From: Escherichia coli
GTDB lineage: Bacteria; Pseudomonadota; Gammaproteobacteria; Enterobacterales; Enterobacteriaceae
NCBI RefSeq assembly: GCF_022846255.1
Contig: NZ_AP025682.1
Length of the DNA stretch: 64,000 nucleotides
Direction: 5' to 3' (one strand)
Shown here: piece by piece, positions 35,103 through 51,268 of the stretch
Layout of the letters: each line of letters opens with the position of its first letter
How positions within the stretch are numbered: the first letter of the stretch is position 1
The notes under the pieces: model-generated
Databases searched by the model: none
What the model was told of the DNA's origin: nothing
The model's input: only the letters and a program-made list of their open reading frames with translations
Program-made: the position numbers and the translations under genes

Positions 35103-36152
35103 TTTGAAAACTGCCTGTACGGCAGTGAACAGCGCCCGCTTTTTTACCGCGTCAGCGCAGCGTTTCTAAGCTGCCTGTACGGCAGTGAACTCCCTGATTC
35201 AGTTGCGCTCCCCGACGAGCTGTTTCTAAGCTGCCTGTACGGCAGTGAACCGTTGGCGTTTCGCGGCAACAGGTTTTTCAATTTTCTAAGCTGCCTGTAC
35301 GGCAGTGAACGTAGTTTTGATTCCAGCGATAACTGCCTATTTATTTCTAAGCTGCCTGTACGGCAGTGAACGTAGTTTTGATTCCAGCGATAACTGCCTA
35401 TTTATTTCTAAGCTGCCTGTACGGCAGTGAACGATCAGGCCCGGCTTTCCCCACACGTTCGTATTTTCTAAGCTGCCTGTACGGCAGTGAACCGCCTGCC
35501 ATTCAACCTGCAAATAGTTTTCGATTTCTAAGCTGCCTGTACGGCAGTGAACGAACTGTGGCACGAGGTTGCAGGCGTAAGACTTTTCTAAGCTGCCTGT
35601 ACGGCAGTGAACGCCATCTTTGAATATAACGCCCCGATTGTGATTTTCTAAGCTGCCTGTACGGCAGTGAACCCCTACCGTTTTAATAAATGGGATTTGC
35701 ATTATTTCTAAGCTGCCTGTACGGCAGTGAACGCTGAGGTGTTTACAATGCGTGCCGTGCTGGTTTTCTAAGCTGCCTGTACGGCAGTGAACTCTGTTTT
35801 TCGTCAGCAGGATTAAACCAGGCATTTCTAAGCTGCCTGTACGGCAGTGAACTCTCATCAATTACGGGTTCGTTGGCTGGATCTTTTCTAAGCTGCCTGT
35901 ATGGCAGTGAACGTCTTCTGCGCATCCGTACCACTCACCAATGATTTCTAAGCTGCCTGTATGGCAGTGAACTTAATCGGTAACGTTGCTCTAATTCCCC
36001 CTCTTTTCTAAGCTGCCTGTATGGCAGTGAACCCAGCGAGAATTGAGGCTGTTTGCCGTGTGCTTTTCTAAGCTGCCTGTATGGCAGTGAACATAAACGC
36101 GCGCAGGTTGTTGAGGTGCTCGAGTTTCTAAGCTGCCTGTATGGCAGTGAAC
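35103..36152 (-). CRISPR. Type I-F CRISPR array A: 18 repeats, 17 spacers (16 unique)
   Basis: 28-bp repeat (RNA sense on minus strand GTTCACTGCCGTACAGGCAGCTTAGAAA) at 60-61 bp period with 32-33 bp spacers; degenerate terminal repeat at 35103..35130; five repeats at 35885..36152 carry a loop variant. Confidence 0.97.
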
Positions 36153-36423
36153 TGGAATAATAGCAGACTATCCGATTGATTTACTGTTAAAACTTACAAA
36201 ATCGCAGATTCAAACCCTTTTTCCAGACTTCAAAACAGAAATAAACAAAATCAATGAGTTACATTTCGCCCTAAAAAAAGGGTCGATTTGGTATTTCTTC
36301 AATCTCATATTTTCTGCATAGCTTTTGATAAACAATTGACCAGAACACATACGGTCATAATCTCCGTCCCGCGAACAGCGTGTTCATTGCGTAACCAAAC
36401 AAATCAATCTATATAAATTCTTC

Positions 36424-36452
36424 TTGACCGTTTCACTCCAACTCCCTATAGT
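36424..36452 (+). promoter_or_regulatory. Putative sigma-70 promoter of tRNA-Ser
   Basis: TTGACC - 17 bp - TATAGT followed by GC-rich discriminator (agcgcccc), about 40 nt upstream of the tRNA. Confidence 0.55.
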
Positions 36453-36495
36453 AGCGCCCCGTTGCCACCTATGAGGTCTGGCAGCAAAACAATTT

Positions 36496-36583
36496 GGTGA
36501 GGTGTCCGAGTGGCTGAAGGAGCACGCCTGGAAAGTGTGTATACGGCAACGTATCCGGGGTTCGAATCCCCGCCTCACCGCCA
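36496..36583 (+). tRNA. serW: tRNA-Ser (anticodon GGA)
   Basis: 88-nt sequence GGTGAGGTGTCCGAGTGGCTGAAGG...TTCGAATCCCCGCCTCACCGCCA with long variable arm and encoded CCA. Confidence 0.93.
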
Positions 36584-36594
36584 TCTTTAAAGAA

Positions 36595-36626
36595 GAGCTC
36601 GTACGAAAGTACGGGCTTTTTTTTCG
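36595..36626 (+). terminator. Rho-independent terminator after tRNA-Ser
   Basis: gagctcgtac-gaaa-gtacgggc hairpin followed by TTTTTTTT. Confidence 0.7.
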
Positions 36627-36704
36627 CATTGATGCACCTTAAATAAAAAACACGTACTTCCTCTTCGAAAGTACGTGAAAATCAGTGGCTGATTACCATA
36701 CCCA

Positions 36705-37718
36705 CTAGTCGTAGGATACGGCAAATATGGCTTTGCTTTGGACTTCTCCAGGCTGTAGTGCTTCCTCCTTCACGCGGACATATTTCGCGGTAATCGGGAA
36801 GGTGTACTGATTCTCAATGGCCGCCATTTTAGTTAGTTTGTTCATCAGAGTATCACCCAGCTTTAACGGTGTTGTTGCGTTACCATTATAAATCTGGAAC
36901 CCAACCCCCTTAGCACCATTAAGCGATGTGTTTTTCAGAATGGTTCCACTATCATCCCATTCACCGCGCGCAACTTTAAAAGTCACTGGATTAGTCGTGA
37001 CGTTATAAACACTGTCACAATTTAAAACCAGATCTATAGAACCTGATTTCGTGTTATTGGCAGATTGCATCTCACTTACCGTTGTTTCTGGCATTCTTAT
37101 TTCGTAAATCGGTTGCGAAAAACTACAGGTTGTGGGTTTGTGTTTGATGCTAAATTCTATATTCTGAGTGTAAGAAACATCACTATTTAGTCGCCCAGTA
37201 ACCCAACATAAAAGCCATGATATGATATTATTATTGCAAGAGTTATCTGTTAGTATGCTAATAGCGGGGCGCGGGATGGTTATCTTGTCGATATTGGTGG
37301 TTATAGTATGGTCTACTTTACTCGTTGGCCCAACATATTCTGCCTTAAGAGTGAACGGTTTGGTATTTATCACATCCTGAGTGTTATATTCTTTTGGAGA
37401 AGCACCCAAGGAGTCAGTTCCAGTAGAAACAGGAAAACTACTACTCTCAAGGTTAAATTTCATAAAAATTGATTTCCCCGAATCCGACTCTCTAAGTTCA
37501 ACGATATAATCTTTTAACGGTGTTGCATAATACATTTTATCGCTTGCTGCATTACATGTGAACGTATCGACTAAGTTTGTATGAATTACAGCCGTTACCG
37601 TATCTTGTGCCATATCCAGTTCTATCGTTTGGCTTGCTGTTGTATTAGGCCCCAAGGTACATTTAGCCTGCCCCAAAAAAGGCAAAGCCAGTAAAAACAA
37701 AAACCAATATTTCTTCAT
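36705..37718 (-). CDS. Fimbrial adhesin / minor tip subunit (chaperone-usher pilus)
   Basis: ORF 36705..37739 (TTG-initiated in the track); likely ATG start at MKKYWFLFLLALPFLGQA signal peptide; last gene of the operon; AT-rich codon usage. Confidence 0.6.
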   Translation of the reverse strand: MKKYWFLFLLALPFLGQAKCTLGPNTTASQTIELDMAQDTVTAVIHTNLVDTFTCNAASDKMYYATPLKDYIVELRESDSGKSIFMKFNLESSSFPVSTGTDSLGASPKEYNTQDVINTKPFTLKAEYVGPTSKVDHTITTNIDKITIPRPAISILTDNSCNNNIISWLLCWVTGRLNSDVSYTQNIEFSIKHKPTTCSFSQPIYEIRMPETTVSEMQSANNTKSGSIDLVLNCDSVYNVTTNPVTFKVARGEWDDSGTILKNTSLNGAKGVGFQIYNGNATTPLKLGDTLMNKLTKMAAIENQYTFPITAKYVRVKEEALQPGEVQSKAIFAVSYD

Positions 37719-37729
37719 AAACAAATCCT

Positions 37730-40222
37730 TTAACGACAAATATAAACTTTATTCTCATCAATAACGTTATCAAAGGTAATAGTGCAGAATTGTTCCTGCT
37801 GTTTATTAACCGAGACGCGAATCGACGCGGGAACATCATTGGTGCGAATAAATATCCGACTTCCCTGTCCTACTAAGCCCACATTATTGCCACTTTCATC
37901 TTCAACCTCATAACCAAACGGCAACGGAGAGCCATCAGGTCGTTGGGAGATGAAATACCAGGGCTTGCGTTTATCAGTCTCAAACTGCGTCATCACTACC
38001 GCACCACGATAAGGAACGGTGTTTTTACGGTTACCCAGTAGCGCCACATCGCTTTTACTGTCGGCAATATCCAACATCAACGTATTTTCACGATACGGCG
38101 TCAGGTTGTCATAAATAGCGTAGCCTCTGCTATCCGTGGTCAAGTAACGATATCCCTGCACCGCAGCCCCCTCCAGCCCAGGTGCTTTGACAATGGCAAA
38201 CGTATCGGAAAGTCTGGGAGCCAGTGCCACCCCGTCCGACCACGCGACGAAACCGCCTTGAATATTACCGCTAACCTGTTGATATCTTTTCGACTGGCTA
38301 TAGCTGCCACCAATAGTCGCCAATGGCGCACGCCAGGTCAGGTTTCCACCTGCTGTTGTTTCGCTGCCCTGGTGTTGATGGCTCAAGTTTGCCCCGTAGC
38401 TGAACTGATCGCGGCTCCCCGCTACACCGCTGAGGCTGGTATTATTCGACCGATAGCCGTCTTTATCAAAAGTGGTCGAGTTAGAAACAAATAAATCTCG
38501 TCGTTTTTCAGTGATTCCATCGCCCCACGAGAAGGGAATTGAGAAATATAAGTTAATGCGTCTATCTTCGCGGTTATCTTCGTCGTAGGTCTGGCTAACA
38601 GACAAGGTATAACTAAGGCGTTCCCAGGAGTTCGAATAGCTGAGTTGATAATCTTTCCCTGTCCCGCTGCGTTCCCAATAATCCCGCCATTGACCGCTGA
38701 CCGACAGATATCCCCAATTTTCCGGTAATGACTGGTTTATATTTACAGAAAAGCTGTTCTTACGACCAAAATCGTACTGATAATAGTCGGCGATATCATA
38801 AACTGAGTCATCTTCTCGATTATAACTTTTCCTGTTATTTGCCCTCACGTGATCGTTAAAAGTACGATAATCTCGAGAAGAATAACGCCAGGCCGCCAGC
38901 GAAAATTGCGTTCCACTTTGAGAGAGATATTTGTTCCACGCAATCTGATAACTTTGACCATTAAACACATCACCGTTATCTTGTTCACTGTGGGAATGGG
39001 TAAAATCAACAGATACCGCACCAATCGGTGTATTCCATCCCGTGCCGAGAACAAACGATGAGTAATTATCAGACAACTGCGTGCCAGCATAGAGAGTCAG
39101 CAAATTATTAAGGCCATACTGATAGCTTCCCTGAATAAAATCTGACTGATCGCTGGCTCCCTCAATACGGCTACGTCCGACAGCAAATTCATATTTCGAA
39201 ACGCCCGGTTGCAACATATTTGGTACCGATGAATAAGGTACACGATAACGCGACACCGAACCGTCAGCTTCTTTAACGGTAACTTCCAGATCGGCACCAC
39301 CACCTGCAAGTTGCAAATCATCAATGGCGAATGGACCTGGCGGAACTTCTTTCTGGTAAACCACAAAGCCATTTTGTTCGATAGTGACAAGTGCGTTACT
39401 TTGGGCAACACCACGCACCACAGGCGTAAAATTCTGTTTAGAGTTCGGCAACATCTGCATATCGCGCCAAAGGCGTACACCGCGAAAACGCACGGAGTCA
39501 AAAACATCAGAACCGGTATACATTTCACCAGCACGCAATGTGCCAAGAATATGTGGAATTCCGCGCTCCAGATATAACGTGTTACTCTTCCATTTACCGC
39601 TGTTATCGTCACTTTTCGTATAATTGGCATTTGAATGCAACTGCCAGCCCAGCAGATTCAAACCACTATTCAGATTTAAATAGCTACTTTTATTATCTCC
39701 TCCGTGCTTATAATTACTGTAATACTGACTGGCATAATAAGAAGTATATAATGCGTTAATCCCACGATCCCATGCCTCAGGTGGAACATATCCGCGTTCA
39801 TACTCAACAACATAGGCCTGGGGTACACTCAACTTCAGGTTAAAATGCCCAATATCATAGTCAACGCTACCTCCCTGTACTGCATCCCGAAGAGGTACGC
39901 ATTCTACGCCTTTATCAATATTAATTCCTTCAGTGAGGATACCTATTTGCTTTAACTGCTCCCAAGATAAACATGTCGCATCCGGATCATCTTTAATGTC
40001 GACATTATAGTGTCCGCGCCACTGATTATTCAGGTAAACATCCATATCATAGATACCTGGCATCGGCTTATCACTATCAATATGATAGTCAGAAATTTTT
40101 TCCCCATTTAATCCGCCAATCATAAAATGGGTGTCAAATGTTTCATCTTCCGCCCATGCAAGCGACGTTGCCAACACCGACAGGATAGCCAGCGTAATAG
40201 AATTAAGTTTAGACATAATCAA
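37730..40222 (-). CDS. Fimbrial outer-membrane usher protein
   Basis: 830-aa ORF, size and composition typical of FimD/PapC ushers, between chaperone and adhesin. Confidence 0.85.
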   Translation of the reverse strand: MIMSKLNSITLAILSVLATSLAWAEDETFDTHFMIGGLNGEKISDYHIDSDKPMPGIYDMDVYLNNQWRGHYNVDIKDDPDATCLSWEQLKQIGILTEGINIDKGVECVPLRDAVQGGSVDYDIGHFNLKLSVPQAYVVEYERGYVPPEAWDRGINALYTSYYASQYYSNYKHGGDNKSSYLNLNSGLNLLGWQLHSNANYTKSDDNSGKWKSNTLYLERGIPHILGTLRAGEMYTGSDVFDSVRFRGVRLWRDMQMLPNSKQNFTPVVRGVAQSNALVTIEQNGFVVYQKEVPPGPFAIDDLQLAGGGADLEVTVKEADGSVSRYRVPYSSVPNMLQPGVSKYEFAVGRSRIEGASDQSDFIQGSYQYGLNNLLTLYAGTQLSDNYSSFVLGTGWNTPIGAVSVDFTHSHSEQDNGDVFNGQSYQIAWNKYLSQSGTQFSLAAWRYSSRDYRTFNDHVRANNRKSYNREDDSVYDIADYYQYDFGRKNSFSVNINQSLPENWGYLSVSGQWRDYWERSGTGKDYQLSYSNSWERLSYTLSVSQTYDEDNREDRRINLYFSIPFSWGDGITEKRRDLFVSNSTTFDKDGYRSNNTSLSGVAGSRDQFSYGANLSHQHQGSETTAGGNLTWRAPLATIGGSYSQSKRYQQVSGNIQGGFVAWSDGVALAPRLSDTFAIVKAPGLEGAAVQGYRYLTTDSRGYAIYDNLTPYRENTLMLDIADSKSDVALLGNRKNTVPYRGAVVMTQFETDKRKPWYFISQRPDGSPLPFGYEVEDESGNNVGLVGQGSRIFIRTNDVPASIRVSVNKQQEQFCTITFDNVIDENKVYICR

Positions 40223-40230
40223 TCCCTGAT

Positions 40231-40911
40231 CTATTTGACGGTTTTTACTTTTTCACTCAAATAGTTCCCATGGTCATCAATCAGCGTAATTGTATATTGA
40301 TTGATGGCTAAGGCTGTGGTGATAGTCTTATCTGACCAGGGGGCTAATAACAACGTTTCGTGATTTATTTTTCCACTTCCCATCAACTCAGGAATAGTTA
40401 TCCAGTTTGCGGAGTTGTTTTTGATATTAATACCACCATTGGCATGCTTAATGCTCAGACGACGAAAACTTTCTTTATCTACGCCAGTAAGTCCCTCTGG
40501 GCGGTAGATAAATTTAATACGATTCTGCATGGCGAATTTTATGCCATTCTTATCTTCTAATTCGGGGCAATTAGGTGGGATGTCTAGCACATTAAGGAAG
40601 AATAGGCTTTCGCGATCTTTTGGTAGTGTATTCGCCAATTTTTTGATTTTGAGTTGTTGCCCTTCCCCCCCTTTTACGTGAGCGACCGGTGGCGTCAACA
40701 CAAACGGAACATGAATTTTTTCTGGGGGTAGACTGGTATCGCCATCATCAATCCATGACTGAACCAGGGCGCTACGATTACCTTCATTCATTAACTGAAC
40801 GGTAATCTCTTTTTTCTTTTCTGGATAAATAACACGAGTGCCGTAGATATAGACACCACTCCACGCAGGCGTGACTATGCCGGCCAGCAAGAAGGCTATT
40901 AATTTTTTCAT
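40231..40911 (-). CDS. Periplasmic pilus chaperone (PapD/FimC-like)
   Basis: 226-aa ORF with signal peptide MKKLIAFLLAGIVTPAWSG and chaperone-like N-terminal region. Confidence 0.8.
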   Translation of the reverse strand: MKKLIAFLLAGIVTPAWSGVYIYGTRVIYPEKKKEITVQLMNEGNRSALVQSWIDDGDTSLPPEKIHVPFVLTPPVAHVKGGEGQQLKIKKLANTLPKDRESLFFLNVLDIPPNCPELEDKNGIKFAMQNRIKFIYRPEGLTGVDKESFRRLSIKHANGGINIKNNSANWITIPELMGSGKINHETLLLAPWSDKTITTALAINQYTITLIDDHGNYLSEKVKTVK

Positions 40912-40964
40912 TAAACAATCCTTGTTTGAGAAATCGGCGACCGAAGCCGCCGATAAACACGATA

Positions 40965-41513
40965 TTAATCTGTCACGACAGTCATTGTCAGAGCAGAGTT
41001 AACCGGGCCAGCAGTCACCGCATCACCTGATTGCGCGTATTTCGCACTGAAATTTAGTGTATATTCATTAGAGCTGTTTTTTTCTAACTCAATACTTTTA
41101 TCACCGTCAATCTGTTGAGATTGCCCATCTGCACTCTCATAGTAGACAGCAAAACCAGCACCATTTGGGTTTGCCACAGTATTAATGGTGATATCGCTAC
41201 GATTTGCATCAAACTGACTTCTGGAAAACGTAATTCTGGGAGTCTCATCTCCTGTACATTTGACCGTCAGCGGTACAGTTGTTTTATTTGAATAACCATC
41301 ATAAATATAACCAGCGCTCTTACCATCAAATTGATCAGCACCAATATCGTTCATAGCAATAGTAGCCTGGCTATTTCCGATAAATTGACAAGTAGTTCCA
41401 ACCACATTACCGGTAATAACTAACTCACCCTGTTCACTCCCCTCCTCTGCAAAAGCCCCTGCACTCATAAAAAGAGAAGATAATACTGCAACTGCAATAA
41501 TTGAACGTTTCAT
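40965..41513 (-). CDS. Major fimbrial subunit
   Basis: 182-aa ORF with signal peptide and Thr/Ser/Gly-rich pilin-like composition; first gene of the operon, preceded by about 380 bp of AT-rich DNA. Confidence 0.75.
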   Translation of the reverse strand: MKRSIIAVAVLSSLFMSAGAFAEEGSEQGELVITGNVVGTTCQFIGNSQATIAMNDIGADQFDGKSAGYIYDGYSNKTTVPLTVKCTGDETPRITFSRSQFDANRSDITINTVANPNGAGFAVYYESADGQSQQIDGDKSIELEKNSSNEYTLNFSAKYAQSGDAVTAGPVNSALTMTVVTD

Positions 41514-41841
41514 AGTCTATTCCTTAACTAATTTATTCCAGGTGATCAAGAGTCTTTTTCCTCTCGGAAATGAATTTCGCAAATTACATTTTCTATCGCA
41601 ATGTAAACAATTTGTTTTTGTGATTTAAATCAAATTATCAAAAGCATATAACAAACAAAAACATCTACAAAAAATATTTTCCTTGTTTACTATTCGGCAT
41701 TATTTGATGTCTTTGCAAGGTAAATTAATACGTATAATTAATTGTGGTTTTTTATTTTAAATAAACATCCGCATACTGATAAAAGTGTAGGGCATTGAAT
41801 TATTTATTCTATTTCCAGCCAGAAATAGGCTTTTCAATAGA

Positions 41842-41874
41842 CAAAAAGACCTGACAGCAAGGCCAGGTCTTTTA
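41842..41874 (-). terminator. Terminator downstream of cas6f (bidirectional shape)
   Basis: gacctg-N10-caggtc hairpin flanked by A-run and T-run. Confidence 0.6.
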
Positions 41875-41892
41875 TACATTACAACTTACTAA

Positions 41893-42447
41893 TCAAAACC
41901 AGGGAATAGTGGCGGTTGCGCTTAATCCGTAACTACTAAATTCCCCTTTAACCGGTTCAGTAAGCAAATCACCATGACGGATAAACAGCTTGAACTGCTG
42001 CTGACTCGACAAACTATTCATATTAAGAAAGGGTAAATCGGTCCGCTGTTCAGCCTGCGTCGCCAGTCGCTCAATCGCCTGTTCTTCAGTTAGCCAGCCT
42101 TTTTTCACTGAACGCCTTAACAGACGCTGAGGGTTACTTTTTACCTGTACACGACTTACGACTCGCCAGCCTTTAATTTCAGGTACTAGCGTGACAGGCG
42201 AACATTGGCAGTAATCAGTAAGCCCTTTACGCCACGTAGAGGCTTCAAGTTCTTGCAATGCGGGGGCACTGCCGTGCAAGCGTAAACGCGCTCCCGGCGT
42301 AACATTCACGTCCGGGAAACTCACGCCGATATCACCTTGCCCTCTTGCACCTAATGCCCGATGCAATTTGGCAAATAACGCCGCCATCAACATTTCGCTC
42401 GAAAATTCAGGATCTGGCAGAACGCGGATCTCAAGGTAGTGATCCAT
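41893..42447 (-). CDS. cas6f: Type I-F CRISPR endoribonuclease Cas6f (Csy4)
   Basis: ORF 41893..42489; start placed at MDHYLEIRVLPDPEF; last gene of cas operon. Confidence 0.9.
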   Translation of the reverse strand: MDHYLEIRVLPDPEFSSEMLMAALFAKLHRALGARGQGDIGVSFPDVNVTPGARLRLHGSAPALQELEASTWRKGLTDYCQCSPVTLVPEIKGWRVVSRVQVKSNPQRLLRRSVKKGWLTEEQAIERLATQAEQRTDLPFLNMNSLSSQQQFKLFIRHGDLLTEPVKGEFSSYGLSATATIPWF

Positions 42448-42457
42448 TGGCAGCTCC

Positions 42458-43459
42458 TTATTCCGATTTCTCACCAAAGACACCGCCACGGATCAGCACA
42501 GCCATCACGTAGCGCTGCTGATCAACGTCTGGTTTCATCCCTTTAGTCACCCAATTGTCCAGTAAGGTATAAAAGTCGAGTTTTTCTTTCGGTTGACGGC
42601 AGGCCACACCGCGACTGGTTACAGAACCGTAAGGTTCCACGGCTATAGCCCCCAATTCATCAACCTTTGGATGCCAGGTATCAATGGTACGTAAAGCATT
42701 GCCAATCTTCTGAGAGTGAATACCGGCAATGCCAGCCACCTGGTATAACACGCGACTTTTACTACTGTTGCTGTCGAGTACCAGCTCCTGCGACGGAAAA
42801 ACTTCTTGCCCGGCACCAAGACGAACCTGCGCTTCAACGGTAAGCATCACCCACTCTTTTGCGCTTAATCCTTGCTCTATAATGGCCGCCAGCTGCGTGA
42901 CCGCTGCCTGTCCCTGGTCAAATTGACGTAAAGAGAAGTCATGGCTGTTAAAAGTCCAGGAAGTGTCGTTAGCAGTAACTTTCACCTGGATCTGCTCAGC
43001 ACCAATGCGGTTGCGCCACAGAAAACGACCATTTGCCAGATTCAGCGCATAGCGAAGCGCCAGCTCTTTAAAGCCATGTTCGCTGATGTAACCTTCAATG
43101 ACCCCGGAAAGCGCCTCCTGGTAAGCCATATCATTACATACTGACGGTGTGGATAAATTACCCAGCACACGCAGCGTAAACACCACCTTTAACGTATCCG
43201 CATCTACCGGAAGCGAAGCCACATCCACCCGTTGCAGGTTAGCTTTTTGGATTTCAGCATCCAGTTTTGTGGAGTCACTGGTAATCGTATTTTTCAAGCG
43301 ATTAGAGATAGTTCCGCGAACCGCTTTCTCCTGAATCTCAATGGGTTGCCATACATTTCCTTGCCAGTTACCTGCGTACATTACCGCGTCAGATGTTGCC
43401 AGTTTGCGCTCAAATGCCAGTACCGATGCCGTTTTTATTACTACAGGAGCCTTTGCCAT
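42458..43459 (-). CDS. cas7f: Type I-F Cascade backbone subunit Cas7f (Csy3)
   Basis: 333-aa [36 protein letters not shown]..., position in operon. Confidence 0.9.
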
Positions 43460-43469
43460 AATTATGTCC

Positions 43470-44393
43470 TTATTCTAAATCGTCATATTCATTAAAAGTA
43501 AAATCATCACCAGCTGGCATTGCCGAGCAATAGTAGCCAGTGTCCGTTGTGCGGTAACGCCACATCAGCGGTTGCAAGTCAGTTATGCGATGTAATCCGC
43601 GCCATTCGCCGATGCCATATACCGCTTCGGCAAAAGCAAATGGCGTCACGGTGTCGCGCGCATTTTCAACTTCACCGGGTGCGTAAACAGGAGAAATGCG
43701 TTGGTAGCCACACATTAACGGTACCAGGAAACCAGGCATTGGCTTCGGCTGATATGTCCATTTTGCGCTGTTGTCTTCTGCCGGAGATTCGGCCTGATAT
43801 TTAACGGCAGCAAAATCAAGCCAGGCATCCAGCAATGAGATGTCGGGATGTTGTTGGTGATGTTCAGCCAGCCATTCACTGCGATCGTAAAGCGCATAGC
43901 CAGGCATTAAACGCCAGATGATTTTACGCAGTTGCTTTTCATCTTCAGGCGCATGAAAAAGCTGTGGTTCGCGCATGTCAACAATGCTGCCGCCCGCCAG
44001 TTTGTGGCTCTGGCAGAGCATTTTCAGATGGTCACACAGAGCTTTTCTGCCATATTCACCATTGGTGATTTCCCCTTCACATTCAATGAGCAAAGATACC
44101 GTCAGATGCATACGGCCCTCTTCATTGAACGAAGCGGTTTTACCTTCTCTGGTTAGTGGGTTACGGGTGAGAGCAAACTGAAAATACCGCCCAGAGCTAT
44201 ATGCCTGAATATGTTGTTCATGGCTAACTACCGCGCAACCGTCAAAACTTACGCCAAAATCATCCGCCACTTTGCGAGAAAGCGCATGAACATAGCCGAG
44301 AAAATGGGTCATCGCCGGGAATCCCCAGGTCAACCCGGAGACGGCGTTAGCGTTTTCGATACGTATATGGGGTAACAAGAGCAGATAACTCAT
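43470..44393 (-). CDS. cas5f: Type I-F Cascade subunit Cas5f (Csy2)
   Basis: 307-aa ORF, operon position between csy1 and csy3, overlaps csy1 stop by 4 bp. Confidence 0.88.
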
Positions 44394-45697
44394 TTCAGCG
44401 CCTCCTGCAAAACAGCTTCCATTTCACGCATCCGTTGAGCGAACAGAGACTGGCTGCGCCATTCTCTTTGCTCGACAGCGCCCACGTCGAAACTGGATTT
44501 TTTCAGGCGATAGTTGAGCCAGCGCGCAAAATCATCGGCCACCGCCCCCTGCCAGTCGTTTTTCTCCCGCTCCAGTTTGAAAACCTCATCGGACAGGCTT
44601 CGCCACGGATCCAGCCAAAGCTGCTGATGGCGAGGTAAATCTTGCGATTGCGCTGACCATCCCTGCCATTTTTCTTGCTGAAAAGCGGATGCCTGCATGA
44701 ACAGCAGATCGATCAACTCATCAATATATTTCGCCCGCGCAGTTCGGATATGAACATTATTTATGTCAACCTTCAACAGGTAAGTCATCCGGGCGATAAT
44801 GCCCGAAGCCGCCCTATTGAAATCGCCGCGTAAGGCAAAAATACTGAGCATGTTTTGTGGTGCGCGATCCAGCGTCGCCCAGGTAGGCGGCATTGACGGC
44901 AACAGCCAGACGCGCCCCCCACGCACACTATTGAGCAATGAAATATTTTGCGGTTTTGTGCCTCCGAAATGCATTTCAGCAAGATTCGGGAAACGAATAT
45001 CTGGCTGTGAGTGCCATTTACCTGCTTTGTGCGCTTCGCGAATGGCTTTCGATTCCTCACTAAAGCGCACGGCGGTTAGCTTTTCATACATCGCCTGCGC
45101 CAGTGAACTGGAAAACAGTGGGCATAAGAGGTGATAACCATCCGCAACAGGGAAATAGATTTGTTTTGCCAGTTTATGGCTGGCAGGCCGTCCAGTTGTC
45201 CATGCCTGGCTAAACCCAGCTACCCACTGCTCCAGTTGCGCTTTATCCTCTGCAAACGTACTTAATGCCTGATAATCACCACGCTTCAGGCTGGCAAGCA
45301 GTGAATCTCCGTTCACATCAGTTTGTAGCAACTTTGCGACGTCAAGTGCAGCGGCGTTACCAATCGCGTCAGTAGCGACATTCGCCAACGATGCCGTGTT
45401 TAAATAGCTTTCGTTAGCGGAGGTTTCCAGATAAAAGCTACTGGCTTTAGAATCACCATGACTGAATTTAGCGCCATGAGTGACTAATTTGATTTGCCCG
45501 GCACGCTTTGCCGCATCCGTTAACCAGTGACGAGGCAGGTAGCGTGCCTCGAGTTCCTGCCGCTCCTGAGCGATGACGCTGGCATCCTCGCCCTGTTCCA
45601 GTCGCTTTGTTGCTTCTTTTTCAAAGGCCTCGACTTTGGGTTGCCTTCGCGAAGCGATATAGTCAGTGATAAATTGTATTAGCGCCGTTTTTTCCAT
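44390..45697 (-). CDS. cas8f: Type I-F Cascade large subunit Cas8f (Csy1)
   Basis: 435-aa ORF, AAGGAG RBS upstream of ATG, first gene of csy cluster. Confidence 0.88.
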   Translation of the reverse strand: MEKTALIQFITDYIASRRQPKVEAFEKEATKRLEQGEDASVIAQERQELEARYLPRHWLTDAAKRAGQIKLVTHGAKFSHGDSKASSFYLETSANESYLNTASLANVATDAIGNAAALDVAKLLQTDVNGDSLLASLKRGDYQALSTFAEDKAQLEQWVAGFSQAWTTGRPASHKLAKQIYFPVADGYHLLCPLFSSSLAQAMYEKLTAVRFSEESKAIREAHKAGKWHSQPDIRFPNLAEMHFGGTKPQNISLLNSVRGGRVWLLPSMPPTWATLDRAPQNMLSIFALRGDFNRAASGIIARMTYLLKVDINNVHIRTARAKYIDELIDLLFMQASAFQQEKWQGWSAQSQDLPRHQQLWLDPWRSLSDEVFKLEREKNDWQGAVADDFARWLNYRLKKSSFDVGAVEQREWRSQSLFAQRMREMEAVLQEALK

Positions 45698-45743
45698 CTC
45701 GGCTCCTTTCGTTAATCCATCAAATTGAAGTTGCTCCCTGACT

Positions 45744-45827
45744 TCACTGAAAAATCTCCGTAGCCCAACCAGGCTTCAGTACAACGACGCATACAGCAAA
45801 AGGGACAACACCCGTGGTGATAATCAT
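45744..45827 (-). CDS. Hypothetical 27-aa hydrophobic mini-ORF (MIITTGVVPFAVCVVVLKPGWATEIFQ); candidate Cre-repressed toxin or upstream leader peptide
   Basis: ATG preceded by AGGTGAG at 6-nt spacing; not in ORF track (too short); lies between the Cre-like target site and csy1. Confidence 0.2.
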   Translation of the reverse strand: MIITTGVVPFAVCVVVLKPGWATEIFQ

Positions 45828-45837
45828 GGATAGCTCA

Positions 45838-45871
45838 CCTAGAGGTATCTACGTTTTAATCTAGTAAAATC
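45838..45871 (+). promoter_or_regulatory. Putative Cascade binding site (CC PAM + 11-nt seed match to the psi-spacer), overlapping a putative minus-strand promoter and RBS
   Basis: cc-tagaggtatct at 45838..45850 is identical to the first 11 nt of the psi-spacer at 45969..45979; I-F PAM is 5'-CC on the non-target strand. Confidence 0.45.
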
Positions 45872-45940
45872 CATGCAATAACCAATAGTGATATTACCAT
45901 GCATGAAATATTTGCCACACAATGATTTAAAAACTAACAT

Positions 45941-46014
45941 TCACGCACTGCCGTTGGCAGCTTAGAAATAGAGGTATCTCCGGATACGGACTTGTAAACT
46001 GCCGTACAGGCAGC
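45941..46014 (+). ncRNA. Degenerate mini-CRISPR (psiR-psiS-psiR), CreA/CreR-like crRNA-resembling RNA gene
   Basis: psiR1 tcacgcactgccgttggcagcttagaaa (intact 8-nt 5' handle, shortened loop); 25-nt psi-spacer; psiR2 gtaaactgccgtacaggcagc (intact Cas6f hairpin, lacks 3' handle); orientation opposite to cas genes; possible promoter TTGCCA-17-TAACAT at 45912..45940. Confidence 0.5.
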
Positions 46015-46024
46015 CCGCGCCCCT

Positions 46025-49000
46025 TCACGGGGCGCGGTACACACCTAACCAGGGGTGATAACGCCAGTCATCGACCACATCTTCTTCACTGACGGGTACT
46101 CTCACCTCAGCAAACTTTTCCCCAACGCTTGCTATCTCACAACCTTGCTTATCAGCTAAATTCAACAAAACGTGTTGGTAATCCATCACGCCCCAGCAAG
46201 CGACACCGCTGGCGCATCTCACCTCTTCTCGCCTGAAATTCCCTTGCGCTTTACGCTCGTTGTCGCCCGTACGGGAATAGAAACGCGCTTCGCTTTCTTC
46301 ATCATCCATATGCAGAAAAAATACCGCCTCCGGCAAAGGGGAATAACGAAATGGCGTCTGGCGCTGTATCCAGCCGTTCCAGCTTAGCGGTGCACGCCAC
46401 CATTGCGCCGCCACCACATGTTTGCTTTTACTGCTCATCAATTCGGCGGATAAACGACTATGTTCTAGCTCCGCCAGTTTGTTGGCATTATTGGCAGACA
46501 GGATCCGCGGCAAGGCGTTAATCGTCCGGTAGTCCGCGATCGGAATCAGTTCGCAAATATCGTGGCTATTCAGCAAGTGTTCTTTTGTTTCGAAACCAGG
46601 CTTACAAAATGCGGGGGCTTTTTTCTGCAATGATTTGATATTGCTACGCAAAATAACCAGATTCTCACTGGTCGGCACATTTCTACGGTGGCGCTGAATA
46701 CGTCCGGCAAATTGAATTATCGAACGCATGGAGCTTGGTTCGATAATTCCCCAATCCGCATCCCAGTCACGCCCCACTTCTATAACCGATGTCCCCAACA
46801 CCACAAACAGATGGTGCGATTCCGGACGGTTATGTAAGGCATCTGCGATATCTTCGTTGTTCCAGAAATCGAGTTCGTTATGACGGGTAAAAGCGCGGTC
46901 CAGTCGCTTCTCAATATCTGAACGCACCGCCAGCGGGTGTCGGGAGTGGTAAACACAATAATGAATACAAACATTTTCTGGTGAAGGAATGGCAATCAGG
47001 GCTTTGGTCACTGCAACCAGTGGATTGATATTCGCGAAGCGCACCAGGCCCAGCGAAACGGTTTTACCGCTTTCGTGTAGCTGGCGATGCGCCTGATGCA
47101 ACTTCAGCATTTGCGTATGCACCGTCTGGGCCACACTTTCGGTAACATCCTGGATTGCAACTGATGCAGATGAAATCGAAGCAACACGCCCGAAATGCAG
47201 CCGCTCTTTTTCAGCCAGCATTACCGCCCGCCTGGCAACAAATTTTGTATGCGCATCGCGAAAGGCCGCTCCATCGCTAATTTGCGTGGCATCAGCATCG
47301 TTTTCGTCAAACCAGGCACAGCAAATATTGACGGGCCTGCCGTTGGTACCACAAGACGCCTGCCACATTTTACGCCCGGCAAGATAAGCCGCGAACAGCG
47401 CCTGAATCAGGCCTGGCGGAAGCGTCGCCGAAGAGAGTAACACCCGCGTTCCCAGCATCCCGGCCCAGTTCATCAAACGACATACCGCATGAAGATCAGC
47501 AATATCAAAGTCGTCGGGTTCGTCGAGCACTAAATCGCTGGTTAACAGACGCAACATCGCCGGAAGCTGTTTCCCGCCACGCACACCCTCGGTCGCGGAA
47601 ATAAGATGATCAATTGTCGCGACCAGAATCGGCGCGCTCACTAACGCCTTAAGTTTGCTGTCATCCTTCAACCATTTTTCCAGCGCCCCGGTATGCAGGC
47701 TGCCTTCGTACTTAACGAACTGTTGCTCCTCTGCCGGCGACTCTTGCGAGGCACTTCCACAATCATTGTCTATTTTTTCCTGCTGCCAGAGCTGTTTAAC
47801 TGCCGCCGAACCAATTAATACCGCCAGCTCATCCTCACCGAGTCCAAGTCGACTACGCAGAGCATCGCCGGTTTGCAAAGTCAGCGTACGCAATCCCAGC
47901 GCGACGGTAAAACGGCACCCTTCCCGCTCATCGGCAAGCGCATACATAATGCGGGCGTTCGCAAAGGTTTTACCGCACCCCGTCGAGGCCATATTAACGC
48001 CGAAAAATCCCTCCTCCCGGCTTCGTTCACGTAACGCTCGCGCCACATCCGAGGCTTTATCCTGCCAGCGATATTTCGCATCTGTAGCTCGCTGGCTAAA
48101 ACCTTTATGTCGGGCAATTGCCGGAAGAGAAGCCCGTGTGCGCATCAGCTGCCGCCCAAGCAAAAACGCATGATGTGCGACGCCGACCAGGTGCTCGTCC
48201 ACCCGTTGTTTGAGTGCGCCACTTTGCCTATCGCTATTTGCCCAGACGATATAATCCGGCTCCTGCCATTTTTGCTGCGCATCGCTTGAGGAATAGTAAT
48301 GATCGGCAAGCATCAGGCAAAAACGCGCCATATGTGAGGGGAACAACTGTTCCATCAGCCCGTATGTCTTTAAACCGAGCGCGTTACTTGCCCGGCGGGA
48401 AATCTGATGTGCTTTTTCTCGCCAGCTAGCACTCTGAAGCGGTGTTCCAGCCGGAAATTGCCAGACGTGCGCAAAATCCTGTTGTAACCAGTCATCTCTG
48501 CGGTGGTTAACGGCATTCCAGTCAGCATTAAGTTGCCTTTCCAGCCAACTTTCACACCCTTTGCAAGATTGTTCCGGTTGTGGCGAAAGATTCTCCGGAA
48601 TTCGATGATGGGAAAGGATCAGCCAACCTACCGTTTTGGCTAGCGGTTGCAGCGAAGTAAATGGGCTATCTGAAAATTGAGGCGTGTCTTTTAGCAGGCG
48701 TTCCAGAATCGCAGATTCATCATCTGCCGTAAGTTCGCCAAGCTTCGCCAGCCACACATCGTCGGGCCGATCACCGACAAACGCCTGAAAGAGCCGCAGT
48801 GAGATCCATTCATGTCGGTATGGTTGATAACTGCGGGCATTCTTTTGGGTCAGGCTTTGCTGAAAGCTGCGTCCGGATTTTCCAAAATCATGAAATAACC
48901 CGGCGATGGCTGCCAGCAGCGCAATGCTTTCCGCACATTGCCAGCGGTTTTCTTCCTTGTTCACCAGGCTGGTTTGCGTTGTGCGATTTGTGGGAACGCG

Positions 49001-49258
49001 CCCCTGAGCATTAAAACGACGAATATTACCCACAATCCACATCAACTCAATTTGTCCATTCTTCTTTAGCCAGTGACATGCCACTGCGGTATTTCGCCTG
49101 GCAGTTTTGCGCAGTAAACGGCGGAGTGTATTAACGCCTTCCAGAGTAATCACTGTTTGCCATGCGGCATCACCTGTACGTTCAGCAAACTGATCAATAA
49201 TACGGCAGCTTTCCACGCGGGCGTTTTTTGTACAGCGCGAGATAATCAGAACATTCAT
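46025..49258 (-). CDS. cas3: Type I-F Cas2-Cas3 fusion (Cas2 domain + HD nuclease + SF2 helicase)
   Basis: 1077-aa ORF; N-terminal Cas2-like region; HD motif LLAAIAGLFHDFGK; overlaps cas1 stop by 4 bp. Confidence 0.92.
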   Translation of the reverse strand: MNVLIISRCTKNARVESCRIIDQFAERTGDAAWQTVITLEGVNTLRRLLRKTARRNTAVACHWLKKNGQIELMWIVGNIRRFNAQGRVPTNRTTQTSLVNKEENRWQCAESIALLAAIAGLFHDFGKSGRSFQQSLTQKNARSYQPYRHEWISLRLFQAFVGDRPDDVWLAKLGELTADDESAILERLLKDTPQFSDSPFTSLQPLAKTVGWLILSHHRIPENLSPQPEQSCKGCESWLERQLNADWNAVNHRRDDWLQQDFAHVWQFPAGTPLQSASWREKAHQISRRASNALGLKTYGLMEQLFPSHMARFCLMLADHYYSSSDAQQKWQEPDYIVWANSDRQSGALKQRVDEHLVGVAHHAFLLGRQLMRTRASLPAIARHKGFSQRATDAKYRWQDKASDVARALRERSREEGFFGVNMASTGCGKTFANARIMYALADEREGCRFTVALGLRTLTLQTGDALRSRLGLGEDELAVLIGSAAVKQLWQQEKIDNDCGSASQESPAEEQQFVKYEGSLHTGALEKWLKDDSKLKALVSAPILVATIDHLISATEGVRGGKQLPAMLRLLTSDLVLDEPDDFDIADLHAVCRLMNWAGMLGTRVLLSSATLPPGLIQALFAAYLAGRKMWQASCGTNGRPVNICCAWFDENDADATQISDGAAFRDAHTKFVARRAVMLAEKERLHFGRVASISSASVAIQDVTESVAQTVHTQMLKLHQAHRQLHESGKTVSLGLVRFANINPLVAVTKALIAIPSPENVCIHYCVYHSRHPLAVRSDIEKRLDRAFTRHNELDFWNNEDIADALHNRPESHHLFVVLGTSVIEVGRDWDADWGIIEPSSMRSIIQFAGRIQRHRRNVPTSENLVILRSNIKSLQKKAPAFCKPGFETKEHLLNSHDICELIPIADYRTINALPRILSANNANKLAELEHSRLSAELMSSKSKHVVAAQWWRAPLSWNGWIQRQTPFRYSPLPEAVFFLHMDDEESEARFYSRTGDNERKAQGNFRREEVRCASGVACWGVMDYQHVLLNLADKQGCEIASVGEKFAEVRVPVSEEDVVDDWRYHPWLGVYRAP

Positions 49259-50244
49259 TGATCAGCCTTAGCCAGTGCCTGGGCAGTTTCCTGCAAAGAG
49301 GTGATCATGACATCCAGCGCATCCGTTTGTTGAAAGATATTGATGCAGCGTAGACGAAACTCCTGGGCATCTTCACCTGCCATCGCGGCGATAAATGCTT
49401 GCGGCATCACAAGGGCATCTTTAATCAGATCGGCAAGGTCAAAAACCAGCCCGCCGCGACGTGTTTTACCGTGCATTACTGCTAAACCGTGCGGGATCCC
49501 GGTTACCCACGCCGCCACTGCTGCCAGTCCATAAGCCAGATAATTCCCTTGATCGAGGAAGCGGTTGGCCATATCAATACCACCGCCCCGTTTTGCGCGA
49601 GTGAAATCGCCATACCCCACTGTTTGACTGACCATTTTGTATAACGCTTTAGTCAATTTGGCCTCTACGAGCATAAGCTGCGTATGGTTTTCTGCCGCGT
49701 CTATTTCTTCACGAGTACGATTCAGGAGGGTATGCAGCGCATTAACATCAGGTTGAAATGCGTGTTCACGCTGCATTTTCGAGCTGGACCAGTGCTTATC
49801 GATATGTGTCAGGCGGATTAACTGAAAACGTTTCGCGGCGGCAAGTCGTTTATCTTCAGCAAACCAAAAAGAAACCCACTGCTGGAGATACTCTGTAGGG
49901 CGATATTCACTTTGTGGGCTGAGCCAGGAGACATCAACATCCACTTCATTTGCCGAATACAGCGGCGTGCCATCCGTACCACAAAAGCCCACCATCACCC
50001 CGGCATGAGCAAATTCACGCATCGCCGCCTGAGTAACGGAAGTTCCCATTCCCAACATCAATGCCGTGGTATTCGCAATGGGGATATTCCAGTAGTACGA
50101 CTCTTTACCTTCGCTGGTGACATACTCCACCCGCCCACCATTCACCTGTACCCGGCATTTTTCCAGATAATAAATATTGGCGCGTTTGGAGTGGAGAATG
50201 GTTTTGAGATCGGAAGGCGTGAGGTAATTCGAAGACATAAACAC
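49255..50244 (-). CDS. cas1: Type I-F CRISPR integrase Cas1
   Basis: 329-aa ORF upstream of cas2-3, first gene of cas operon. Confidence 0.9.
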   Translation of the reverse strand: MFMSSNYLTPSDLKTILHSKRANIYYLEKCRVQVNGGRVEYVTSEGKESYYWNIPIANTTALMLGMGTSVTQAAMREFAHAGVMVGFCGTDGTPLYSANEVDVDVSWLSPQSEYRPTEYLQQWVSFWFAEDKRLAAAKRFQLIRLTHIDKHWSSSKMQREHAFQPDVNALHTLLNRTREEIDAAENHTQLMLVEAKLTKALYKMVSQTVGYGDFTRAKRGGGIDMANRFLDQGNYLAYGLAAVAAWVTGIPHGLAVMHGKTRRGGLVFDLADLIKDALVMPQAFIAAMAGEDAQEFRLRCINIFQQTDALDVMITSLQETAQALAKADQ

Positions 50245-50400
50245 ATCCTGTGATTATTTTATATTTGAAGGTATTGGGCTTAGTACAGCATTGATTTATG
50301 TGCTGAAAATTGATTTCTGTCGCAATTATTACGATTGTTATTGTATGCTGAAGCTAATGGTTTGAAGTTGAGAGCGTCATGATATGACCAAACGTCTACC

Positions 50401-51268
50401 ATTATCGTATTGTGAAACTACCTGTACGGCAGTGAACCGCGTAGAGCTGCTGCGCAAACTCGACACTCATTTCTAAGCTGCCTGTACGGCAGTGAACCCT
50501 CGTTCATCAAGGTGCTCAAAGCTTGACATTTTCTAAGCTGCCTGTACGGCAGTGAACGCCAAGAACGCTGTTACCGCTTCCCTGTGCGCTTTCTAAGCTG
50601 TCTGTACGGCAGTGAACCCAGATTGCCGAAAACATCGCCTTTGATGAACTTTCTAAGCTGCCTGTACGGCAGTGAACGGGCGCGGTGTCGTCCAGGATTT
50701 GGAGGCAACTTTCTAAGCTGCCTGTACGGCAGTGAACAACAGGTCGTCCAGCGCATCCCACGGATCCGGTTTCTAAGCTGCCTGTACGGCAGTGAACATC
50801 GCGCACACGCAGTCTTACATTTGCCACCATTTCTAAGCTGCCTGTACGGCAGTGAACGAGTGATTATTATGGCCCAATCGGACGATGACTTTCTAAGCTG
50901 CCTGTACGGCAGTGAACCTCCACCCGTGGTAAGCAGAAAGGGCCGTAACTTTCTAAGCTGCCTGTACGGCAGTGAACTGATCTGTTGCGATACTGACAGT
51001 ATCGTTAGCTTTCTAAGCTGCCTGTACGGCAGTGAACTGTTTTTTTGACGTGTAAACCGGGCGGTTTTTTTTCTAAGCTGCCTGTACGGCAGTGAACATC
51101 TCCGTATTTACTGTCCTCCCTGCTATCCATTTCTAAGCTGCCTGTACGGCAGTGAACTGCCAGTTTCGAAAACGTGCAGCAAATGCAGTTTTCTAAGCTG
51201 CCTGTACGGCAGTGAACTACCTTAATTTGAAATGAACCTTTGCCGCATATTTCTAAGCTGCCTGTACG
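50401..51268 (-). CRISPR. Type I-F CRISPR array B: 15 repeats, 14 spacers
   Basis: same 28-bp repeat at exact 60-bp period, 32-bp spacers; degenerate terminal repeat at 50401..50428 next to cas1; repeat at 50581 has a stem substitution. Confidence 0.97.

Follow-up and report, generated by a model that had tools for sequence, protein, structure and literature searches.

The stretch of Escherichia coli DNA analysed here (the window, 64 kb in full) most probably carries, in its infA–clpA interval, the E. coli CRISPR-III (type I-F1) locus with spacers that form a record of mobile elements, a reading to which we assign a probability of about 0.88. Because approximately one-quarter of the spacers have CC-flanked targets in plasmids or prophages and none targets the window, the locus counts as an ordinary representative of known kinds of immune system, with a working-looking memory. 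Its operon of cas1, cas2-3 and csy1–4 is intact (six of six type I-F cas genes full length) and has a minus-strand type I-F array on either side:

41893..42447, minus strand: cas6f (csy4), PF09618, 184 aa in related contigs
42458..43459, minus strand: csy3 (cas7f), identified by Pfam
43470..44393, minus strand: csy2 (cas5f), identified by Pfam
44390..45697, minus strand: csy1 (cas8f), identified by Pfam
46025..49258, minus strand: cas2-3 fusion (cas3f), identified by PADLOC, with a Cas3_I-F_Cas2 domain
49255..50238, minus strand: cas1f, identified by Pfam

The gene set is that of type I-F1, with Pfam matches to Cas_Cas1 and Cas_Csy1-4 at E values of 4e-13 to 8e-145 and a PADLOC match of the fusion gene to Cas23f/Cas3f (1219 bits). 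The 3′ end of infA lies at approximately 34990 and clpA at 51490–53781, which places the locus at the clpA–infA site. E. coli CRISPR-III has been described there as a type I-F system comprising CRISPR4.1/CRISPR4.2 and cas-F genes (Almendros et al. 2014, PMC3903273), and the window resembles it in site, gene order, 28-nt repeat and the presence of two arrays that each have a conserved leader of their own, as well as in the serW tRNA-Ser gene beside the infA-side leader; the layout is that described in PMC3903273 and that of the annotated I-F locus of E. coli CFSAN064035. The published survey reported a nearly invariant locus (PMC3903273). The window differs from CRISPR-III in its cas operon (approximately 94.5% identical to the nearest of the 5,426 complete E. 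coli genomes that formed our E. coli collection, versus 98.7% for the flanks, which are E. coli clpA–macAB), in a four-gene chaperone-usher fimbrial operon between cas6f and serW, and in spacer content, as none of its spacers occurs in the type I-F (clpA–infA) arrays of those 5,426 genomes and only one, A10, recurs at all, in two strains and within their type I-E arrays.

A repeat search recovered 33 copies of a 28-nt repeat (TTTCTAAGCTGCCTGTACGGCAGTGAAC on the plus strand) in two blocks, with the following features:

35103..36152, minus strand: CRISPR array A, infA side, 18 repeats and 17 spacers, from A17 (35131-35162, farthest from the leader) to A01 (36093-36124, adjoining it)
36153..36320, minus strand: leader of array A, AT-rich, conserved with the infA-side leader of CFSAN064035
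50410..51277, minus strand: CRISPR array B, clpA side, 15 repeats and 14 spacers, from B14 (50438-50469, oldest) to B01 (51218-51249, newest)
51278..51445, minus strand: leader of array B, conserved with the clpA-side leader of CFSAN064035
35311..35404, minus strand: A13 and A14, one 33-nt spacer tandemly duplicated with its repeat unit (copies at 35311-35343 and 35372-35404)
35885..36152, minus strand: five leader-proximal repeats of array A with a loop SNP (crRNA sense CUGCC-A-UACA-GGCAG, -A- replacing -G-)

In E. coli nomenclature, array A is probably CRISPR4.2 and array B CRISPR4.1. The earlier note's count of 31 spacers, 30 of them unique, was reproduced (17 + 14, with the 33-nt duplicate), and its span of 35131–51240 holds at the start and falls trivially short at the end, the last spacer reaching 51249. 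Spacer lengths (29 of 32 nt and 2 of 33 nt) are those of type I-F1. On the minus strand, 32 of the 33 repeats exceeded the gathering threshold of Rfam CRISPR-DR4 (RF01317), far beyond chance; the terminal repeats (35103-35130 in array A and 50410-50437 in array B) are degenerate, and folding predicted the Cas6f hairpin (5-bp stem, 5-nt loop) in the canonical, loop-SNP and both terminal repeats. The first repeat of CFSAN064035 has the canonical G at the loop position. Since the SNP is common to the five leader-proximal repeats, spacers A01–A04 were acquired after the loop mutation arose in the first repeat.

The leaders would drive minus-strand transcription of both arrays, and cutting by Cas6f at the hairpin base of the repeats is predicted to yield 60-nt crRNAs with an 8-nt CUUAGAAA handle, 32 nt of spacer and a 20-nt hairpin. 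Loaded with such a crRNA, the Csy complex would locate protospacers flanked by 5′-CC and then bring in Cas2-3. Known I-F1 systems, those of Pseudomonas aeruginosa PA14 and Pectobacterium atrosepticum, share with the window Cas1, Cas2-3 and Csy1-4, 32-nt spacers, the 5′-CC PAM and 28-nt repeats that form a Cas6f hairpin, but differ in host and spacer content.

Searches of phage, plasmid and E. coli collections gave convincing protospacers for seven spacers:

35433..35464, minus strand: A12, 32/32, CC PAM, SprT-like gene beside stbABC in approximately 91 plasmids, E = 2e-5
50618..50649, minus strand: B11, 32/32, CC PAM, DUF3164 gene of a Mu-like transposable prophage, E = 6e-5
35853..35884, minus strand: A05, 32/32, CC PAM, gene beside a lambdoid-prophage repressor, E = 6e-5
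50438..50469, minus strand: B14, 31/32, CC PAM, lambdoid prophage of STEC384
51218..51249, minus strand: B01, 30/32, CC PAM, conserved intergenic site in the lambdoid late region
36033..36064, minus strand: A02, 30/32, CC PAM, 700-aa tail-region gene in a siphovirus-type prophage of E. coli JNE151685
35973..36004, minus strand: A03, 28/32, CC PAM, J-like tail-tip gene in the JNE151685 prophage

All seven protospacers lie inside an annotated plasmid or prophage, and CC occupies positions −2/−1 in all seven of these mobile-element matches, each of which reaches 28/32 or better, an outcome with a probability of approximately (1/16)^7 under uniform base composition. The plasmids matched by A12 are conjugative (MOBF/MPF_T, IncN-like), approximately 34 kb in size and carried by E. 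coli, Klebsiella, Salmonella, Citrobacter and others. The B11 prophage is found in E. coli A35 and OkiPb01694, and the A05 prophage sits at ttcA in E. coli STEC384 and STEC379; the 30/32 targets of B01 are in a prophage of E. coli B27 and in phage CharmingMan, with shorter exact matches in HK544, ev099, Emek and Ss-VASD. These matches trace the identifiable spacers to IncN-like conjugative plasmids and enteric temperate phages (Mu-like, lambdoid and with siphovirus-type tail genes). Protospacers of B14 and A05 lie 6.7 kb apart in one STEC384 prophage, and those of A03 and A02 2.5 kb apart in one JNE151685 prophage; because both members of each pair lie on one strand of a single prophage, the two pairs fit primed adaptation, which may have produced them.

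Other spacers had weaker or different matches:

50858..50889, minus strand: B07, 28/32, baseplate-V gene junction of a contractile-tail prophage in approximately 425 E. coli genomes
50738..50769, minus strand: B09 (tentative), 28/32, large-terminase gene of phage vB_EcoM-ep3, E of approximately 1
51038..51069, minus strand: B04 (tentative), 23/32, CC PAM, tail-fibre gene of the JNE151685 prophage
35553..35584, minus strand: A10, positions 4-32 identical to a type I-E array spacer near queE/ygcE

For B07, a PAM of TA or TC together with a mismatch at position 1 marks the matched sites as diverged relatives and not licensed targets. Three of the four B09 mismatches are at third codon positions, leaving the encoded peptide identical, and the PAM is CG, with the −1 base at a wobble position; for B04, seven of the nine mismatches fall in one codon phase, the third position (calculated by hand from annotated CDS coordinates). 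Chance similarity may still account for B04, B07 and B09. The A10-like type I-E spacer occurs in E. coli 2013C-4282 and WL297, and no underlying target of A10 was found in the phage, plasmid and E. coli collections. The spacers had been taken earlier to be traces of past invaders with a 5′-CC PAM, and both suppositions are borne out by the seven with plasmid or prophage protospacers, all of which are directly preceded by CC on the 5′ side; the proposed search of phage, plasmid and E. coli genomes with that PAM has thus supplied seven CC-flanked targets. The description 'unknown target' no longer applies to roughly one-quarter to one-third of the spacers and stands for the 19 of the 30 unique spacers that were unmatched in the phage, plasmid and E. 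coli collections, 7 of which (or relatives thereof) were absent from IMG/VR too.

The Cre-like psi-spacer module suspected earlier is present between cas3 and csy1, in the orientation opposite to that of the cas genes, with a single CC-flanked seed match at 45838-45850:

45941..46021, plus strand: Cre-like mini-array (psi-repeat, psi-spacer, psi-repeat)
45941-45968, plus strand: psiR1, TCACGCACTGCCGTTGGCAGCTTAGAAA, with the 5′ handle CTTAGAAA kept
45969-45993, plus strand: psi-spacer, 25 nt
45994-46021, plus strand: psiR2, with the Cas6f hairpin GTAAACTGCCGTACAGGCAG kept
45838..45864, plus strand: predicted psi-spacer target, with a CC PAM at 45838-45839 followed by TAGAGGTATCT at 45840-45850
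45912..45940, plus strand: predicted sigma-70-like promoter of the mini-array, TTGCCA-17-TAACAT, directly upstream of psiR1

The module thus has two degenerate repeats, the upstream one with a 5′ handle and the downstream one with a 3′ hairpin, around a shortened spacer in an intergenic region of the cas operon. CC plus the 11-nt psi-seed occurs at one site only in the 64 kb, in this same intergenic region and 141 bp upstream of where csy1 starts, and the site matches the psi-spacer at positions 1-11 and 13-14. The mini-array region is present in 238 of the 5,426 E. coli genomes. In an alignment of five E. coli I-F loci, the −10 element of the mini-array promoter is invariant and guide–target pairing is maintained: the only mismatches in the first 13 positions are at the unpaired positions 6 and 12, and position 5 co-varies (G:G in the window versus T:T in CFSAN064035, a compensatory change). 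Every sixth spacer base is dispensable for pairing according to the I-F1 mini-array literature, in which these autoregulatory elements, with psi-spacers typically of 23-27 nt, are described as crlRNA (Shmakov et al. 2023, bioRxiv 10.1101/2023.03.03.530964) or CreR (Liu et al. 2023, bioRxiv 10.1101/2023.03.10.532045) and have been experimentally validated in P. aeruginosa. As judged from its sequence, the E. coli mini-array fits this class, which it resembles in its two repeats in the cas3–cas8f gap, transcription opposite to cas3, upstream repeat with a 5′ handle, 25-nt spacer, seed complementary to a CC-flanked site downstream towards cas8f, and mismatches at 6 and 12; it differs in host, the validated example being that of P. 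aeruginosa YL84. Most likely, the psi-spacer would guide Csy to the site upstream of csy1 and so repress csy1–4 transcription without cleavage. A consensus scan located no csy1 promoter, so that overlap of the target with this promoter is suggested by position only.

We consider it very unlikely that the psi-spacer gates more than csy1–4, with a short ORF acting as a CreT-like toxin that is released when Csy is inhibited. The candidate ORF (MIITTGVVPFAVCVVVLKPGWATEIFQ; minus strand, approximately 45826-45743) is hydrophobic and preceded by a Shine–Dalgarno sequence, starts 12 nt after the PAM and has 27 codons; in both the window and CFSAN064035 it comes after the target, and in UTI89-type loci it is frame-shifted. 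CRISPR-repressed CreTA and CreAP modules, known from Haloarcula I-B and Acinetobacter I-F (creAP) systems (bioRxiv 10.1101/2024.01.05.574328), likewise have a degenerate mini-CRISPR in the cas3–csy1 gap, whose partial complementarity to a promoter directs Csy there. Unlike them, the window has no recognizable toxin gene, its only post-target ORF being this one of unconserved frame, and lacks the KilAC-like 103-aa ORF of A. baylyi; neither a rare-codon run nor a KilAC-like ORF was found after the psi-target. If the toxin reading were true, the E. coli I-F locus would be a CRISPR-guarded addiction module rather than a simple autoregulatory loop.

The strongest competitor to a working memory, which we hold to be a real though clearly less probable possibility, is that the spacers are genuine old memories in a frozen relic, silent or no longer acquiring or interfering, and thus without present function. 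B01–B14 and A01–A11 recur unchanged in independent public assemblies and metagenomes, where the leader ends hold no newer spacers, arrays of E. coli are reported to change little over time (PMC10910852), and the matches of B01, A02 and A03 are imperfect. However, none of the six cas genes is disrupted, the leaders and every repeat hairpin have been retained, the loop SNP in five leader-proximal repeats shows at least four later acquisitions, three spacers match circulating elements at 32/32 with a PAM, and the psi-seed/target pair is kept by covariation, which speaks for selection acting on a Csy complex that is expressed.

It is unlikely that any spacer is directed against a prophage or plasmid resident in another part of the source genome and is tolerated via an anti-CRISPR, PAM or seed escape, or cas repression. 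Such a situation would be conceivable in that the identified targets are mostly E. coli temperate phages, some self-targeting event occurs in approximately 10% of complete E. coli genomes (PMC10910852) and the window covers 64 kb of the genome only, but prophage self-targeting is reported to be rare (18 events in 1,014 genomes; PMC10910852) and none of the 5,426 complete genomes carries both a target and these arrays. Self-targeting, earlier thought not assessable by eye, is now excluded for the 64-kb window: the canonical spacers match nothing in it beyond chance (longest exact match, 13 nt), PAM-plus-seed matches number 5 for the real spacers versus a mean of 4.0 for shuffled ones, and the sole internal 'self' match is that of the separate 25-nt psi-spacer in the cas3–csy1 gap. 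All spacer matches in the 5,426 genomes are in prophages, plasmids or a CRISPR array. Finally, although short queries against 28 Gb produce many weak matches (22/32 matches came at the expected noise rate, and B09 has an E of approximately 1), chance similarity uninformative on spacer origin is refuted for the seven main matches by E values of 2e-5 to 6e-5 for those at 32/32, by CC flanks and mobile-element location in all seven, and by two prophages each matched by two spacers.

Together, these results leave the general understanding of CRISPR unchanged, and the spacers now serve as a host-range record of a lineage that has met Mu-like and lambdoid temperate phages and IncN-like conjugative plasmids, the latter common in clinical Enterobacterales. 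The record can help to type strains and to predict which plasmids or phages this one should exclude. In addition, the psi-spacer covariation provides comparative support, now in E. coli, for the published view that I-F effector expression is self-limited via a degenerate crRNA.

Two blocks of a 28-nt repeat (TTTCTAAGCTGCCTGTACGGCAGTGAAC on the plus strand; period 60–61 nt) define the arrays of this locus, one on the infA side (array A) and one on the clpA side (array B), and the cas genes were all recovered at full length by Pfam and PADLOC. The locus is flanked on the left by infA and on the right by clpA–clpS–cspD–macAB (right flank 98.7% identical to E. coli), and thus occupies the clpA–infA site where E. 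coli carries its type I-F 'CRISPR-III' locus (arrays CRISPR4.1 and CRISPR4.2; PMC3903273), the same site as the arrays and cas genes of the annotated E. coli I-F example CFSAN064035.

Features of the locus (coordinates, strand, description)
35103–36152, minus (crRNA sense), array A: 18 repeats, 17 spacers
36496–36583, plus, tRNA-Ser (GGA, serW)
36705–41513, minus, four-gene chaperone-usher fimbrial operon
41893–42447, minus, cas6f
42458–43459, minus, csy3
43470–44393, minus, csy2
44390–45697, minus, csy1
46025–49258, minus, cas2-3 fusion
49255–50238, minus, cas1
50410–51277, minus (crRNA sense), array B: 15 repeats, 14 spacers

Spacers were numbered from the leaders (A01–A17 on the infA side, B01–B14 on the clpA side). 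The count of 31 spacers, 30 of them unique, given in an earlier note was borne out both by the repeat search (17 + 14; 29 of 32 nt and 2 of 33 nt) and by Rfam, in which 32 of the 33 repeats exceeded the CRISPR-DR4 gathering score on the minus strand, the terminal repeat at 50410 being too degenerate to score; the span assigned to them (35131–51240) was correct at its start, whereas the last spacer ends at 51249. The only identical pair is A13 and A14 (33 nt each; 35311–35343 and 35372–35404), a spacer and repeat unit duplicated in tandem (35311–35404), within which a related metagenome contig stops. Beyond the mini-array described below, no more degenerate repeats (up to eight substitutions) were found in the window. 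The Cas6f hairpin was kept in every repeat class folded (canonical, loop-SNP variant and two terminal repeats), and the remaining repeats match these classes apart from one stem substitution in an array B repeat (50590–50617), so that all 31 spacers could mature into crRNAs; the leaders of both arrays are conserved relative to CFSAN064035. The cas operon (41893–50238) is ~94.5% identical to the nearest of 5,426 complete E. coli genomes, and identity across the cas3–csy1 gap is 91% or 83%, compared with 98.7% for the neighbouring clpA–macAB; on sequence grounds, the operon seems to represent a third allelic lineage among E. coli I-F loci. Its Csy1 is identical on 11 public contigs.

To assign targets, which the earlier note had listed as unknown, the 30 unique spacers were concatenated with stretches of N between them and searched against phage, plasmid and complete E. 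coli genome collections; those still unmatched were searched again at a looser threshold, and each matching region was fetched and its flank read for a PAM. Seven spacers matched plasmids or prophages, every one with the 5' CC that the note had proposed to look for.

Protospacers (spacer, identity, PAM, target)
A12, 32/32, CC, SprT-like gene directly after stbABC on ~91 conjugative MOBF/MPF_T plasmids of ~34 kb
B11, 32/32, CC, DUF3164 gene in E. coli A35 and OkiPb01694, within a Mu-like prophage (Mor, gp16, DDE transposase)
A05, 32/32, CC, lambdoid prophage at ttcA in E. coli STEC384/379
B14, 31/32, CC, the STEC384/379 prophage also matched by A05, on the same strand and 6.7 kb away from that site
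B01, 30/32, CC, late-region intergenic site conserved among lambdoid prophages and phages (B27 prophage, CharmingMan)
A02, 30/32, CC, tail gene of a siphovirus-type prophage of E. coli JNE151685
A03, 28/32, CC, tail-tip gene of the JNE151685 prophage also matched by A02, on the same strand and 2.5 kb away from that site
B09, 28/32, CG, large terminase of phage vB_EcoM-ep3 (suggestive only)
B07, 28/32, TA or TC, baseplate-V junction in ~425 E. coli genomes, position 1 mismatched (suggestive only)
B04, 23/32, CC, tail-fibre gene of the JNE151685 prophage (suggestive only)

The occurrence of CC at positions −2/−1 in all seven main cases has a chance probability of roughly (1/16)^7; judged from these flanks, the motif is the I-F PAM, oriented as expected, which independently confirms the strand of array transcription. 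The A12 plasmids were found in E. coli, Klebsiella, Salmonella, Citrobacter, Proteus and Enterobacter, and their gene content (EexN, KikA, a Nuc-like PLD and VirB genes) suggests an IncN-like backbone. A version of A12 whose seed differs by one base (A to G at position 7) occurs in ENA metagenome ERZ929318 (L021, 15034–15065), in an otherwise identical array A; the window's version, not that of ERZ929318, gives the 32/32 plasmid match.

For B09, mismatches fall mostly at third codon positions, with the peptide identical and the G of the CG PAM at a wobble site; for B04, seven of the nine mismatches are in a single codon phase, the third position (a hand calculation from CDS coordinates). B04 was the sole addition when the target elements that had been fetched (460 kb) were scanned with a cut-off of 22/32, the other 22/32 matches lacking a PAM and occurring at the expected chance rate. 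At E ≤ 10, the 25 spacers unmatched at that stage yielded only noise among plasmids (a Mycolicibacterium match) and, among phages, only B09 with ep3 and one mycobacteriophage noise match. Exact-pattern scans of IMG/VR (N at every sixth position), which had no positive control and are weak, returned no matches for A01, B02, A10, A13, A04, B03 or the PAM-bearing B07. In the collections searched, 19 unique spacers had no match. A stretch of 29 contiguous bases of spacer A10 (35553–35584) recurs, in the same orientation, in a spacer that E. coli 2013C-4282 and WL297 carry in their type I-E CRISPR2 array (L009, 2998–3029). The flanks of the shared stretch imply slightly different source variants, and two CRISPR types apparently sampled one element; a target of A10 itself was not found (no match for the A10 core in a genome-contig scan).

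Self-targeting by canonical spacers within the window is excluded: with the arrays masked, the best match was 13 exact bases (about chance level), and CC plus at least eight effective seed bases (sixth positions ignored) gave five matches for the real spacers against a shuffled mean of 4.0. Among the 5,426 complete E. coli genomes, none of which carries these arrays, every inspected match lay in a prophage, plasmid or CRISPR array and none in core genes, making self-targeting of core genes unlikely.

A repeat-fragment search did reveal a mini-array (psi-module) in the 327-bp cas3–csy1 gap, running antisense to the cas genes on the plus strand.

Features of the cas3–csy1 gap
45743–45826, minus, 27-codon ORF (MIITTGVVPFAVCVVVLKPGWATEIFQ) downstream of the psi-target
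45838–45850, predicted psi-target, CC+TAGAGGTATCT, 141 bp upstream of csy1
45941–45968, plus, psiR1, which keeps the CTTAGAAA handle
45969–45993, plus, psi-spacer of 25 nt (TAGAGGTATCTCCGGATACGGACTT)
45994–46021, plus, psiR2, which keeps the Cas6f hairpin

A predicted sigma-70-like promoter (TTGCCA-17-TAACAT) ends one base upstream of psiR1. The earlier note had pointed to a Cre-like module, and this was upheld, the psi-target being the single match of the psi-spacer seed in the 64 kb; guide and target are identical at positions 1–11 and 13–14. Of the 5,426 genomes, 238 contain this intergenic region, which falls into two sequence groups. When the window was aligned with four of these genomes, the promoter-like DNA between guide and target was highly divergent while their pairing was kept: mismatches within the first 13 positions occurred only at 6 and 12, which I-F complexes leave unpaired, and position 5 was changed on both sides in CFSAN064035 (G:G to T:T). 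In its place, orientation, CC PAM and sixth-position mismatches, the module matches the I-F1 mini-arrays of Shmakov et al. (bioRxiv 10.1101/2023.03.03.530964), which are located between cas3 and the effector operon and transcribed opposite to cas3; the repressor function of one of them was validated in Pseudomonas aeruginosa. It also fits the CreR concept (bioRxiv 10.1101/2023.03.10.532045), its 25-nt spacer being inside the 23–27 nt reported for bacterial I-F CreA/CreR. A scan of IMG/VR for phage-borne mimics (psi handle plus seed pattern), weak for want of a positive control, found none.

The 27-codon ORF, whose AGGTGA Shine–Dalgarno sequence overlaps the psi-target PAM, was considered as a CreT-like toxin. 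It is identical in CFSAN064035, and the 5' UTR around it is conserved far above the promoter-like DNA upstream; its frame is shifted in UTI89-type loci, and since the reading frame is not conserved we set the toxin aside and read the module as probably CreR-like (cas autoregulation) rather than CreTA.

The anatomy, protospacer matches, PAM and guide–target covariation were all directly observed. We infer that the arrays would be transcribed from their leaders and processed by Cas6f, with Csy surveying CC-flanked targets for degradation by Cas2-3; priming may have been the source of the spacer pairs A02/A03 and A05/B14. A Csy–psi-RNA complex would bind upstream of csy1 and repress csy1–4 without cleavage, because pairing ends after ~14 nt. 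Five leader-proximal repeats of array A (35885–36152) share a loop SNP (G to A in the crRNA sense) absent from the first repeat of CFSAN064035, which implies that at least four spacers (A01–A04) were added after the first repeat mutated. Pointing the other way, very recent acquisition is not apparent from comparison with NCBI assembly GCA_005387665.1 (array B identical) or an ENA metagenome contig (A01–A11 identical), neither of which shows extra leader-end spacers.

The fimbrial operon between cas6f and the serW/array A leader region encodes a YehD-like major subunit (182 aa), a PapD-like chaperone (226 aa), an usher (830 aa) and an adhesin-like subunit (344 aa), and stands in contrast to the near invariance of the E. 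coli I-F locus in the published survey (PMC3903273); PADLOC found no defence genes in this 5-kb insert. Thirty-five complete E. coli genomes carry homologues (~94% identity), on 99–121 kb plasmids or in an IS1-flanked island, where an adjoining tRNA-Ser fragment suggests IS1-mediated mobilization out of a locus resembling this one. The presence of serW in the cas-region query accounts for several short matches in nearly every E. coli genome. An 81-aa ORF (36384–36629, minus), overlapping serW on the opposite strand, is almost certainly spurious.

Together, the features of this locus are of known kinds: an E. coli type I-F locus, CC-PAM spacers derived from mobile genetic elements, and a probable autoregulatory mini-array of the I-F1 kind. 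What is particular to it is modest, namely a cas allele ~5% diverged from those of complete genomes, a spacer set absent from the same genomes, the fimbrial insert and the covariation within the mini-array.
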